A stretch of 21,652 nucleotides of DNA from a virus (IMGVR_UViG_2516143027_000011:1-21652), one strand, 5' to 3'. Numbered from the stretch's first letter, positions 17,456 to 21,652 are shown. Notes: generated by a model from the letters alone, not told the origin. Numbers and translations are program-made.

Positions 17456-18979
17456 ATGGCTAAATACTCTGAAGAATTAAAAGGCGTTGTTCGCGCACTT
17501 TATCTGCGCCGCTATACGCCAAAGGAAATCGCATCTGAATTAAATCTGCCGAATGCGCGGATCGTTTACTACTGGGCGGAGAAATACAGCTGGGCGGATT
17601 TGCTCAGTTTTGAAAGCACAGAGGAAGCGATTGAACGCCGTTACCAGCTGCTGGCCAGCCGCGATAACAAAACCGATCTCGACCTGAAAGAAATGGACAT
17701 GCTCATTGCTCATGCCACGAAACTGCGTGCGCAGAGTAATAAACACAAAGAGAAAATGGTCAGCGGTCAGAGTTCCGGGCAAGCAGCTGCGCGGGACAAC
17801 AATGACGACGAACCGCGCAGCAAACGGAAATACAAGAAAAACGATATTACCTCGCTGACGCAGGAGGACTTTGACGCATGGGCGGAGGAACATCTTTTTG
17901 AATATCAGAAACACCTGCGTAATAACATTGGCCAGCTTGTCAGGAACATCCTGAAAAGCCGCCAGATCGGTGCGACCTGGTATTTTGCGTTTGAAGCGTT
18001 TGAAAACGCGGTGATGACCGGCGATCCGCAAATCTTTCTGTCCGCGTCAAAGGCGCAGGCTGAAGTGTTCCGGTCTTACATCGTGAATATTGCAGAGCAG
18101 TATTTCGGTATTACGCTGACCGGCAACCCGATCCGCTTAAGCAACGGCGCAGAACTGCGTTTTCTCTCCACCAACAAAAACACCGCTCAGTCCTACAGTG
18201 GCCACCTGTACTGTGACGAATATTTCTGGGTGCCAAACTTTGCAAAACTTAACGAAGTGGCCAGCGCAATGGCCACACATGACAAGTGGCGCACCACCTA
18301 TTTTTCAACACCATCGGCAAAAACGCACCAGGCTTACCCGTTCTGGACTGGCGATGAGTGGAAACAGGGCAGTAAAAAACGTGCGGCCATTAAGTTTCCG
18401 TCCTTTAACGAAATGCGTGACGGCGGGCGACTCTGCCCGGATGGGCAATGGCGCTACGTCATTACGATGGAAGATGCCATTGCGGGCGGTTTCAACCTGG
18501 CGAACATCGAGAAACTGCGCAACCGCTACAACGACGCCACTTTTAACATGCTCTATATGTGCGTGTTCGTTGACAGCAAAGATTCCGTTTTCAGCTTTTC
18601 CGACCTGGAAGCCTGCGGCGTTGAAATCGACACCTGGCAGGATCACAACCCTGATGCAGCGCGGCCATTCGGTGACAGGCCAGTGTGGGGCGGCTTTGAC
18701 CCGGCTCGCAGCGGTGATTTGTCCTGTTTTGTCATCATCGCCCCGCCGATGTTCGTCGTGGAGAAGTTCCGCGTTCTGAAGGTGATTTACTGGAAAGGCA
18801 TGAACTTCCGATACCAGGCAAAACAGATCGAGCAGTTGTTCAAAAAATACAACTTCACTTATCTGGGGGTGGACGTTACCGGCATTGGCCAGGGTGTTTT
18901 TGACAACATTCAGCATTTTGCCATGCGCGTGGCCGTCCCTATTCGTTACGACCTAAACACCAAAATAAGCTGGTATTGA
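17456..18979 (+). CDS. Terminase large (ATPase) subunit, P2 gpP-like; reading frame ends prematurely at 507 aa
   Basis: Divergent from the scaffold gene across a 162-bp intergenic region, as in P2 (P/O). The C-terminal part continues in the -1 frame (next feature); the two pieces together are about the length of P2 gpP (about 590 aa, from memory). Confidence 0.7.
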   Translation: MAKYSEELKGVVRALYLRRYTPKEIASELNLPNARIVYYWAEKYSWADLLSFESTEEAIERRYQLLASRDNKTDLDLKEMDMLIAHATKLRAQSNKHKEKMVSGQSSGQAAARDNNDDEPRSKRKYKKNDITSLTQEDFDAWAEEHLFEYQKHLRNNIGQLVRNILKSRQIGATWYFAFEAFENAVMTGDPQIFLSASKAQAEVFRSYIVNIAEQYFGITLTGNPIRLSNGAELRFLSTNKNTAQSYSGHLYCDEYFWVPNFAKLNEVASAMATHDKWRTTYFSTPSAKTHQAYPFWTGDEWKQGSKKRAAIKFPSFNEMRDGGRLCPDGQWRYVITMEDAIAGGFNLANIEKLRNRYNDATFNMLYMCVFVDSKDSVFSFSDLEACGVEIDTWQDHNPDAARPFGDRPVWGGFDPARSGDLSCFVIIAPPMFVVEKFRVLKVIYWKGMNFRYQAKQIEQLFKKYNFTYLGVDVTGIGQGVFDNIQHFAMRVAVPIRYDLNTKISWY

Positions 18980-19230
18980 AAGCGGTGGACGTGGTGGAAA
19001 GCCAGCGTATTGAGTGGGATAAAAACCTGAAAGAGATCGCGGCCAGCTTTATGTCTGTGCGCCGAACCACCACACAAAGCGGCAATGCTATGACGTTTGT
19101 CGCTGACCGTAGCCAGGATACCGGCCACGCGGAGGCGTTCTGGGCGATTACCCACGGTCTGCATAACGAACCCCTTAACTATGAAAACAAACCTAAATCC
19201 CGCTGGGGTGTAAGGAAAGAGGCAGCATGA
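18904..19230 (+). CDS. Terminase large subunit C-terminal segment in -1 frame (frameshifted continuation; pseudogene or sequencing error)
   Basis: This frame is open from 18904 and overlaps the end of the upstream terminase ORF. It encodes ...LVLKAVDVVESQRIEWDKNLKEIAASF...ADRSQDTGHAEAFWAITHGL.... Its TGA overlaps the portal ATG (ATGA at 19227-19230). An A4 run at 18962-18965 is the likely indel site. Confidence 0.5.
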   Translation, partial: QHSAFCHARGRPYSLRPKHQNKLVLKAVDVVESQRIEWDKNLKEIAASFMSVRRTTTQSGNAMTFVADRSQDTGHAEAFWAITHGLHNEPLNYENKPKSRWGVRKEAA

Positions 19231-20288
19231 GTAAAAAGAAACGCTTTGTTAAGCGCGACCAGCGCGGCGACAAATCAAAAAAGATGAGCATTATCACATT
19301 CGGCAAACCTGAACCGGTTCTGACTACCGGCACAGATTACCGTGATATCTGGTACGACAATGCCGCCGATCACTTCACCCAGCCGATTGACCGGCTGGCA
19401 CTCGCACAACTGATTAATCTTAACGGTCAGCACGGCGGCATCATTCACGCCCGTAAAAACATGATTGTTTCAGACTATCAGGGGGGCGGGCTTATTCACG
19501 ACCAGCTGGAAGCGGCAGCGTTTGACTATATAACCTTTGGGGATATTGCGATTGCCAAAATTCGTAACGGCTGGGGCGACGTGATCGCACTTGAACCCTT
19601 GCCCGGTCTGTATATTCGCCGCCGCAAAGTCAGAGATAACGCCCAGGATAAACCCGGTGACTACGTGGTGTTACAGGAAGGGGAACCGCAGGTATGGCCA
19701 GAAGAAGATATTATCTTTATCAAAATGTATGACCCGCAACAGCATATCTACGGACTGCCGGACTACATCGGCGGTGTGCATTCCGCGTTACTTAACAGTG
19801 AAGCGGTCATTTTCCGACGCCGCTATTACCACAACGGTGCGCACACAGGCGGTATTCTTTATACCCGCGATCCCAGTATGACGGATGAAATGGAAGAAGA
19901 AATTGAACAGCAGCTGCGTGACAGCAAAGGTATCGGTAACTTCTCCACTATTCTGGTGAACATACCTGGCGGGGATGGGGATGCAATCAAGTTCATCGAA
20001 ATGGGGGATATTTCTGCAAAAGATGAATTTGCCAATATCAAAAACATCAGCGCCCAGGACATTCTGAACGCGCACCGTTTCCCTGCTGGCCTCGCCGGTA
20101 TTGTCCCGCAGAACACTGCCGGACTGGGGGATGTTGAAAAGGCTGAACGCATTTACAAGAAAAGCGAAATAGCCCCCATCCAGCGCCGTTTCATGCTGGC
20201 CGTTAACGGCGATCCCGAAATACCGAAAAGGCTACACCTTAACTTTGATTTAAGTTACACAGAATCAACGGATAAGGGTGCGGCATGA
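19227..20288 (+). CDS. Portal protein, P2 gpQ-like (353 aa)
   Basis: Strong AAGGAAAGAGG Shine-Dalgarno; follows the terminase as in P2 (P then Q); size matches gpQ. Confidence 0.7.
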   Translation: MSKKKRFVKRDQRGDKSKKMSIITFGKPEPVLTTGTDYRDIWYDNAADHFTQPIDRLALAQLINLNGQHGGIIHARKNMIVSDYQGGGLIHDQLEAAAFDYITFGDIAIAKIRNGWGDVIALEPLPGLYIRRRKVRDNAQDKPGDYVVLQEGEPQVWPEEDIIFIKMYDPQQHIYGLPDYIGGVHSALLNSEAVIFRRRYYHNGAHTGGILYTRDPSMTDEMEEEIEQQLRDSKGIGNFSTILVNIPGGDGDAIKFIEMGDISAKDEFANIKNISAQDILNAHRFPAGLAGIVPQNTAGLGDVEKAERIYKKSEIAPIQRRFMLAVNGDPEIPKRLHLNFDLSYTESTDKGAA

Positions 20289-20338
20289 GGCGAAACAGGC
20301 TAAAATCCAGGCATCATTTAACAGCTGGAGCATGGAAT

Positions 20339-20602
20339 ATGCGAGTTCTGAAAATCGAATGCCCGGAATGCGGCTCAAAGGCTGTTATTCGTAAAACGAA
20401 CAGGAAGCACCGGCAGATTGCGGATATTTACTGCGCCTGTTCAGATGTTGAGTGTGGCCATACGTTTGTTATGAATCTGACGTTCTCCCACACTCTCAGC
20501 CCCAGCGCGAAAACGGGTGATGCGATGGTGCAGATTCTACTTAACAGCCTGTCACCTTCTCAAAAACAGATGGCACTTGATTTACTGAGTAATGCTTCTT
20601 AA
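20339..20602 (+). CDS. Ogr/Delta-family zinc-finger late transcription activator (about 87 aa)
   Basis: CPECG...YCACSDVECGHTF matches the Ogr/Delta C-x2-C...C-x4-C motif (P2 Ogr: CPLCQ...YHQCQNVNCSATF). GGAG Shine-Dalgarno 8 nt upstream of ATG at 20339. An alternative start at 20285 would overlap the portal stop (ATGA). Confidence 0.65.
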   Translation: MRVLKIECPECGSKAVIRKTNRKHRQIADIYCACSDVECGHTFVMNLTFSHTLSPSAKTGDAMVQILLNSLSPSQKQMALDLLSNAS

Positions 20603-21330
20603 TCAGAATCTAATTTGGCTTTTGCTCTAATTGTTTCGATAAATTTCAATGAATCATGATTACCAAAAGCCTCTTTTTTATATGCTAGAATGATATCAGT
20701 GATTAGTTCTAAATTTCTGGCATCATCACTAAATAATGTATTAAAAGCGATATCATGTGTATAGGCATCAGGCAGGCCGTCAAGCAAGCGCCAATCCTCA
20801 ACAGGTAAATGTTCCAAAAAGGCATAACGCTCAAGCATTTTTTTATAATATGCATATGAAGATACTTTGTCTGCATGAGCAACATTTATCACTAACAGAA
20901 TCAATACTTCAAAGCTCAGAAAAGATCGAATAATACTTGTATAATATTTTCTCTTCTTATATTTAAAATCCAAAAAAGAACTTTTATCAATAAGCTTTAA
21001 TAAATGATACAACACTCTAAAGTAACTACTAAAAAACATATCCTTTTCATGCATTCGATTATTGGCTTCGCATAGAGAAAGCTCACCATGTCCGCCTCCA
21101 CCGGCTAAAACGTATGAAAATTGTGTTGAAAAATCAGAATTATTTTTTAACACATTTAGTTGTTCATTGTGTTGGGCAAGCAACAAAGAGAAATTTGAAT
21201 CAAAACGCTCCGCACGGCGATTAAAAAAAGATAACATCAAAGCAACAATGACAGAAAGAACTGTCCCTAAAGCAACAAAAAACTGTACTGCAAATTGATT
21301 ATCTTTCGCAAAATCATTCAAAGCAGACAT
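20599..21330 (-). CDS. AT-rich membrane-anchored protein of unknown function (about 243 aa); candidate accessory or defence cargo
   Basis: Base composition is markedly AT-rich compared with the phage genes. N-terminal transmembrane helix (FAVQFFVALGTVLSVIVALMLSFF) and a possible second hydrophobic segment. Convergent with the ogr-like gene, with overlapping stops. Start uncertain (21330, 21357 or 21390). Confidence 0.5.
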   Translation of the reverse strand: MSALNDFAKDNQFAVQFFVALGTVLSVIVALMLSFFNRRAERFDSNFSLLLAQHNEQLNVLKNNSDFSTQFSYVLAGGGGHGELSLCEANNRMHEKDMFFSSYFRVLYHLLKLIDKSSFLDFKYKKRKYYTSIIRSFLSFEVLILLVINVAHADKVSSYAYYKKMLERYAFLEHLPVEDWRLLDGLPDAYTHDIAFNTLFSDDARNLELITDIILAYKKEAFGNHDSLKFIETIRAKAKLDSD

Positions 21331-21445
21331 ATTAGACCTTCGCCGTTTAACTGTCATTCCATATTGCGAGCTAGCAATAATGTTGAGCATTTGTTTGGGG
21401 ACAGGGATTTTAATCCCCTAGCAGCATTTGTACAATTGGTATAAA

Positions 21446-21652
21446 TCAAACACGCTTTTGAAGTACGTCTCTACTAAGACTATCATGATTATCTAAAGTC
21501 TCCTTACGTATCAGGATTCGTAGGTCCTCTGTAATTTCGCCAATCCATTGTAAGGCCACCCTTTTTTCTTTCGATGAAGCCTCATCAATATTGGAAATTT
21601 TTGCCAGTAACTCAATACGTTCCAGCCCTGCTGACACCTCCAACAAATCCAT
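21446..21652 (-). CDS. Hypothetical protein, 3' end only (gene probably continues beyond the window edge); AT-rich
   Basis: Minus-strand ORF with stop at 21446 and open to the window edge; same strand and composition as the adjacent AT-rich gene, so possibly one operon. Confidence 0.35.
   Translation of the reverse strand: MDLLEVSAGLERIELLAKISNIDEASSKEKRVALQWIGEITEDLRILIRKETLDNHDSLSRDVLQKRV

Follow-up and report, generated by a model that had tools for sequence, protein, structure and literature searches.

A putative abortive-infection gene of the AbiC/AbiP group carried as cargo beside a tum-like gene in an ESSI-2-type P2-family prophage of Escherichia coli

Introduction

AbiC and AbiP were among the first abortive-infection genes to become known, and their fold and biochemistry are still unassigned. 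They encode two experimentally proven Abi proteins with unlike phenotypes, carried in lactococci by a plasmid. According to a review of these systems, each protein combines a membrane anchor with an all-alpha domain, the anchor consisting of one transmembrane (TM) segment in AbiP and of two in AbiC. AbiP requires its membrane anchor, binds RNA and single-stranded DNA, is triggered by the major tail protein, and stops both phage DNA replication and the switch from early to late transcription. As the two phenotypes differ and the biochemistry is unassigned, a mechanism is not transferable with confidence from these proteins to a relative.

Prophages of the P2 family offer two other points of comparison. 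Of the products of the P2 cargo genes old and tin, Old is an OLD-family nuclease, and the target of Tin is the T-even single-stranded DNA-binding protein. Rousset et al. 2022 (PMC9122126) delimited the interval between gpA, the replication endonuclease gene, and gpQ, the portal gene, as the defence hotspot of P2; their Table S5A contains the arrangement 'Ogr_Delta + putAbiC + hypothetical', and their main text holds no report of testing it. In coliphage 186, the record gives the order p95/LexA-tum-t95a-orf97-t95b for the SOS operon and states of Orf97 that 'expression from plasmid blocks 186 infection'.

The present analysis concerns a stretch of viral DNA of 21,652 nucleotides (IMGVR_UViG_2516143027_000011), called here the window, in which a sequence-only reading had pointed to an AT-rich segment as a candidate defence module. 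Publications or annotation already cover the family, the hotspot and even the arrangement of the genes, and the Table S5A entry has Ogr (WP_032299410) and 68-aa (WP_000364839) proteins identical to those of this locus (PMC9122126). No paper on putAbiC or PF16872 was found in a literature search. What is added here, by sequence comparison, is the assignment of the upstream gene as a Tum-like SOS antirepressor gene, and the consistent occurrence of the AbiC/AbiP-group gene (AbiC/P gene) at the orf97 position behind a LexA box.

The prophage and its variable segment

By sequence similarity, the window is assigned to a P2-family prophage of E. coli of the ESSI-2/Quadragintavirus type. The terminase, the portal and most of ogr show 97% identity with Escherichia phages ESSI2_ev040, ev015 and ev129. 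Homology with ESSI2_ev040 and with the relatives devoid of cargo ends at about 20532-20533, within the ogr-like gene, of which the last ~70 bp, at the 3' end, are part of the variable segment. The sequence-only reading had located a switch to AT-rich DNA right past the ogr stop. The AT-richness is real (GC 0.322 over the AbiC/P gene and 0.30 in 20600-21199, versus 0.517 in window 1-20598; that is, 32% versus 52%), and only the boundary has to be moved, to ~20533 inside ogr. The putAbiC genes keep a GC content of 30-37% whatever the host.

The locus of E. coli TK3887 (L001) is a 99.6% identical counterpart of the window locus and carries the sequence on past position 21652. Its gene order is portal, ogr, AbiC/P-like gene (-), 68-aa gene (-) and replication endonuclease gpA (-), the upstream gene being complete and followed, in this order along the locus, by a LexA box and then gpA. 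As read from this counterpart, the AbiC/P gene is located between gpA and the portal gene gpQ. The proposal of a variable anti-phage hotspot of P2 prophages is therefore borne out by this interval and by the arrangement in Table S5A (PMC9122126). The ogr-like gene and the AbiC/P gene are convergent, with a TTAA common to both stop codons (Table 1).

Table 1. Positions and strands of the features at the cargo locus, in window coordinates unless stated otherwise
Feature	Position	Strand	Basis
Ogr/Delta-like zinc-finger late activator gene	20285..20602	+	PF04606, 8.9e-20
Accessory AbiC/AbiP-group gene (putAbiC, PF16872), 243 aa	20599..21330	-	ORF, Pfam, PADLOC, PGAP
Pfam putAbiC core, aa 100-179 of 243	20794..21033	-	Pfam domain limits
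Predicted single N-terminal transmembrane helix, aa 13-37, FAVQFFVALGTVLSVIVALMLSFF	21220..21294	-	Kyte-Doolittle
Promoter-like element TTGTAC-N17-TAAAAT	21407..21435	-	Consensus scan 9/12, L001 9836..9809 (window = +11598)
Complete 68-aa gene, Tum N-terminal homologue without DinI domain	21446..21652	-	PGAP CDS WP_000364839.1
LexA box, outside the window	L001 10080-10095, 26-41 nt past the window end		TK3887

The occupancy of this site was recorded in 5,426 complete E. coli genomes, 30 of which have this prophage type at the locus. The AbiC/P-like gene was found in two of the 30, a 345-aa DUF2806 protein on the other strand in two, and a partial match in one; the remaining 25 are without cargo, ogr abutting or overlapping the small gene, followed by gpA. 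The cargo site is also empty in ESSI2 phages ev040, ev015 and ev129, and tblastn with the 243-aa protein against 50,697 phage records gave no match. With two AbiC/P genes, 25 empty sites and two DUF2806 genes among these prophages, the segment can be regarded, as had been proposed, as accessory cargo: on these comparisons the AT-rich segment is an accessory gene ('moron'), optional to the prophage. The alternative DUF2806 gene (L004 1162-2199, opposite strand, two E. coli genomes), for which PADLOC returned no match, is another candidate of the hotspot.

The likeness with the old and tin cargo of P2 lies in the common gpA-gpQ hotspot, in variable occupancy, in atypical composition and in carriage by a prophage. 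Unlike in P2, the carrier belongs to another lineage of the P2 family, in which ogr is joined to the portal operon, and the proteins are unrelated. Outside this setting, remoter putAbiC proteins are found on plasmids of Pantoea, Vibrio, Erwinia and Pseudomonas, and two homologues occupy other surroundings, one adjoining an ars operon and the other lying in an integrase/AlpA/DUF927 island.

A membrane-anchored protein of the putAbiC family

The maximal ORF on the - strand (20599..21390) encodes 263 aa. The start was set at M21, position 21330, which has a Shine-Dalgarno sequence GAAGG 8 nt upstream and yields a protein of 243 aa; PGAP places the same start in the TK3887 gene (WP_071290231.1, 99.6% identical), which it names 'putative phage abortive infection protein'. 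The Kyte-Doolittle profile (19-residue window) peaks at 2.5 across aa 13-37, so that the protein of about 243 aa with an N-terminal transmembrane anchor, as first described from the sequence, is retained. This transmembrane motif is kept across the subfamily, and the basic residues RRAER that follow the helix predict a cytoplasmic location for the C-terminal domain. The AlphaFold2 (AF2) model is all-helical (pLDDT 85), with a single long helix spanning aa 12-62.

The protein scores 47.3 bits with PF16872 (putAbiC), over profile positions 6-79 of 80 (E 3e-12), versus a cutoff of 22; membership in Pfam is defined by a score above this curated gathering cutoff. PF16872 is present in 65/65 aligned relatives. 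With the PADLOC models, each of the 13 close subfamily members is a match for AbiP (best 1.2e-6), and five of the 13 are a match for AbiC (2e-5). These matches are weak: that of AbiP spans only positions 110-173 of the 223 in the profile, and similarity to the characterised lactococcal proteins, as measured with the PADLOC models, covers only ~65-80 residues at E 1e-5 to 1e-6. NCBIfam gave no match for the 243-aa or the 68-aa protein. Judged from these profiles, the 243-aa protein is a member of putAbiC (PF16872), the family of lactococcal AbiC and AbiP. The vague resemblance to 'putative abortive infection protein' entries that the sequence-only reading had mentioned is thereby substantiated by the PGAP name and by a PF16872 score above the cutoff, and a protein that it had assigned to no characterised family falls, judging by the profiles, most likely in the described AbiC/P group.

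In an exhaustive profile search, 1,195 cluster representatives were collected at E <= 1e-3 and only 8 at E <= 1e-30, which indicates a small subfamily within a large superfamily. The prophage subfamily comprises one-TM (AbiP-like) and two-TM (AbiC-like) variants, two helices being present in relatives of 265-292 aa. Like AbiP and AbiC, the 243-aa protein has an N-terminal membrane anchor followed by a predicted all-alpha domain, and comes, as they do, from a system of one gene on a mobile element; its size is comparable too, with 223 positions in the PADLOC profile for AbiP. Unlike the lactococcal plasmid genes, its gene belongs to a P2-like prophage of a Gram-negative host and sits behind a LexA-controlled tum-like gene.

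Eight polar residues are invariant or nearly so among the homologues (H54, N55, R105, K128, R135, N149, E173 and H174) and constitute a candidate binding or catalytic surface. The HEPN-like Rx4-6H motif suggested by 'ERYAFLEH' (Rx5H) was ruled out, since close homologues have C, K or E in place of its arginine. The comparison of the window gene with its Enterobacter homologue (pN 0.12 versus pS 0.71) places the AbiC/P gene, at the sequence level, under purifying selection. The window and TK3887 genes (L001 9001-9732) differ by four nucleotides, all non-synonymous and none synonymous; the resulting changes S117N, K123R, Y129H and L172F, too few to be tested, lie in the region around the putAbiC core.

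The tum-like gene and its LexA box

The gene upstream of the AbiC/P gene had been taken for a part of the cargo cut by the window edge. It is in fact complete: its ATG forms the last three bases of the window, a Shine-Dalgarno sequence GAGGGGG precedes it in TK3887, and the same 68-aa protein is annotated there as WP_000364839.1. Nor is it cargo. The protein matches phrog_698 (6e-22) and is homologous to ev040 gp27 (E 4e-8), the small protein of the 'empty' relatives; in hhalign its family aligns with aa 5-44 of coliphage 186 Tum (probability 94.4%, E 8.8e-8). The C-terminal DinI-like domain is absent, since the 68-aa protein has no Pfam hit whereas Tum matches PF06183, and PADLOC gave no match for it either. 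This gene is consequently described, by homology, as a conserved prophage gene of Tum-like SOS antirepressor type.

In TK3887, a LexA box TACTGTTGTTTTATACAGTA (read on the coding, -, strand; 16/20 consensus matches) is flanked by promoter-like hexamers and lies directly ahead of the 68-aa gene. The small gene has a corresponding box in front of it in ev040 (L002 14422-14437) and in two other E. coli prophages, L004 (2578-2593) and L005 (1223-1238), and a LexA box is found also at p95 of coliphage 186, used for comparison. The presence of the box before the Tum-N-like gene in all these prophages indicates that this P2-family lineage is probably SOS-inducible through an antirepressor without a DinI domain. 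The annotated 86-aa start of the ev040 gene overlaps the LexA box, and the true start is therefore probably an internal Met, as in L005.

The succession of a LexA box (TACTGT-N8-ACAGTA), a Tum-N-like gene and putAbiC was observed in TK3887, L011, L012, L013 and L015 and in the remnants L007 and L009, putting putAbiC in the orf97 position in seven independent loci. The relatives with the conserved order gpA - LexA box - Tum-N-like gene - putAbiC - ogr <- portal <- terminase are one Pectobacterium prophage and three metagenomic or SRA contigs, their homologues being 35-44% identical. In L012 and L015 the stop of the small gene overlaps the start of putAbiC, an overlap that speaks for co-transcription. 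The prophages of Serratia and Enterobacter have shrunk to remnants with a decayed tum-like gene (start codon lost, premature stop) but an intact LexA box and an intact putAbiC gene. This survival of putAbiC in decayed remnants suggests domestication by the host. The heavily decayed P2-like remnants (L007-L010) lie beside a UDG-family gene and rpoD.

In the window, a spacer of 55 nt separates the 68-aa gene from the AbiC/P gene and has no terminator-like site. It contains the promoter-like element of Table 1, which overlaps a short palindrome; in the 1-TM subgroup, the positions of its hexamers show partial conservation at the loci of Enterobacter and Serratia. As a consensus match only, this element is a possible promoter of the AbiC/P gene itself.

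The resemblance to the 186 SOS operon extends to its place (between gpA and the portal side of the hotspot), to the LexA box in the promoter, to a first gene homologous to the N-terminus of Tum, and to a second gene whose product also has 243 aa and an N-terminal membrane anchor. The locus differs from 186 in that the Tum-like protein is without the C-terminal DinI domain and that an ogr-like gene separates the cargo from the portal gene. Homology between the 243-aa protein and Orf97, suggested by equal length and position, was rejected (BLASTP E 2.9), and Orf97 has no Pfam or PADLOC match. The AbiC/P gene thus compares with orf97 as a positional and architectural analogue, not as a homologue.

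Proposed function and alternative explanations

The explanation to which a fair degree of confidence can be given is that a putative defence gene, carried as cargo in the gpA-gpQ hotspot, forms a single-gene system, and that its 243-aa product is a membrane-anchored protein of the AbiC/P kind serving abortive infection or exclusion. The most likely predicted function of this protein is phage exclusion by abortive infection. The protein would be held in the inner membrane by its single-pass anchor and expose an all-alpha domain to the cytoplasm. By analogy with AbiP, the tethered domain would stay inert until activated by a protein of the infecting phage, and would then bind nucleic acid and/or perturb the membrane, so that the replication of the invader or its early-to-late switch would fail. 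The co-orientation of the gene, directly downstream of the LexA-box Tum-N-like gene, points to probably two routes of expression: a weak promoter belonging to the gene itself would give a low level, and transcripts running on from the SOS promoter would add to it, as for orf97 of 186. We infer the anti-phage activity, the trigger, the nucleic-acid binding and the co-transcription from these comparisons. Against this defence reading, a LexA-repressed position would be unusual for a gene guarding an uninduced lysogen.

The main rival explanation is of the same kind and differs in timing. The protein would be made mainly on LexA cleavage together with the Tum-like antirepressor, and not as a constitutive Abi sentinel; like Orf97 of 186, it would act during induction against superinfecting related phages or co-induced co-resident prophages. 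A LexA box and a tum-like gene do lie directly upstream in every intact prophage locus examined, the overlapping stop and start codons of L012 and L015 and the spacer without a terminator-like site point in the same direction, and the same slot of 186 is occupied by a membrane protein of equal length that blocks 186 infection when expressed. Such a strict timing is nevertheless rather doubtful. Orf97 and the 243-aa protein have no detectable sequence similarity, the promoter-like element upstream of the gene is partly kept in the 1-TM subgroup, related putAbiC genes occur also outside prophages, in an island and on plasmids, and the gene is intact in remnants incapable of induction, which suggests a benefit to the host. 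A role foreign to defence, in which the gene would be a membrane moron that times lysis, modifies the envelope or affects the physiology of the host, or would be kept silent on account of its AT-richness, is unlikely: the family includes two experimentally proven Abi proteins, the gene is within a validated defence hotspot (PMC9122126), its sporadic mobile distribution over prophages, an island and plasmids is typical of defence genes, and the phage has its own lysis cassette elsewhere than at the AbiC/P locus.

The two remaining alternatives concern the status of the genes. The small gene adjoins the putative Abi effector in the same orientation and their reading frames overlap in some relatives, as would be expected of a two-gene module of toxin-antitoxin style, with the 68-aa protein as the antitoxin of the membrane protein. 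This pairing is very improbable and was rejected, as it supposes an obligate co-occurrence that the loci contradict: the cargo-less L005 and ev040 have the small gene and no AbiC/P gene, an intact AbiC/P gene stands beside a degraded small gene in the remnants of Serratia and Enterobacter, and a partner of this kind is lacking for the L014 homologue. The small protein is, moreover, homologous to the Tum N-terminus. The synteny kept across Pectobacterium, metagenomic and E. coli prophages could finally be taken as the sign of a conserved core gene of the phage lineage, an outcome against which the sequence-only reading had itself set its proposal. This is hardly tenable and was refuted by the cargo-less relatives, the gene being absent from 28/30 E. 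coli prophages of the same type and from ESSI2 ev040, ev015 and ev129.

Among these explanations, the abortive-infection or exclusion protein of the AbiC/P kind is the one preferred here. A broader proposal can be put forward tentatively, namely that the site after the LexA-controlled tum in 186-type, SOS-inducible P2-family prophages may be a dedicated, exchangeable slot for SOS-gated exclusion genes. Unrelated membrane-anchored proteins would then fill the slot, Orf97 in 186 and AbiC/P in the ESSI-2-like lineage; DNA damage or induction would arm the AbiC/P protein, and rival phages, superinfecting or co-induced, would be shut out while the prophage replicates. Defence would in this case be coupled to the SOS response, as opposed to constitutive lysogen immunity. 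The placement behind a LexA-controlled antirepressor gene raises in any event the question of SOS-switched prophage defence genes. In addition, a compact enterobacterial homologue from a tractable E. coli prophage, with a confident AlphaFold model (pLDDT 85) and few invariant polar residues, would offer a convenient entry to the mechanism of the AbiC/P group.

Additional features of the prophage

In P2, ogr adjoins the att/int end, unlike the ogr-like gene of this locus, which is joined to the terminase-portal operon as its last gene, the ATG and the portal stop overlapping (ATGA). The ogr-like protein has a 24-residue extension ahead of the zinc finger, and the final ~23 codons of its gene differ between cargo-bearing and empty prophages. 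The 19-nt cohesive end (cos) of P2 had no match at <=3 mismatches in the window or in the TK3887 locus. The portal/ogr and ogr/AbiC overlaps leave no spacer, which indicates that the cos of this lineage is not at the P2 location. No Rfam RNA family was found across the whole window.

The gene of the terminase large subunit (window 17456-19230) is split into ORFs of 507 and 84 aa by a 1-nt deletion in an A-run at ~18961-18965, which reads CACC-AAAATAAG versus CACCAAAAATAAG in TK3887, where the subunit is unsplit and has 591 aa. Either this reflects an error in sequencing the homopolymer, or the frameshift is real and inactivates the gene, in which case the prophage would be defective. Lastly, ESSI2_ev040 (L002 22490-24545) has a second cargo site after the integrase, which encodes an AbiJ-like protein (PADLOC AbiJ 3e-16) and a serine acetyltransferase.
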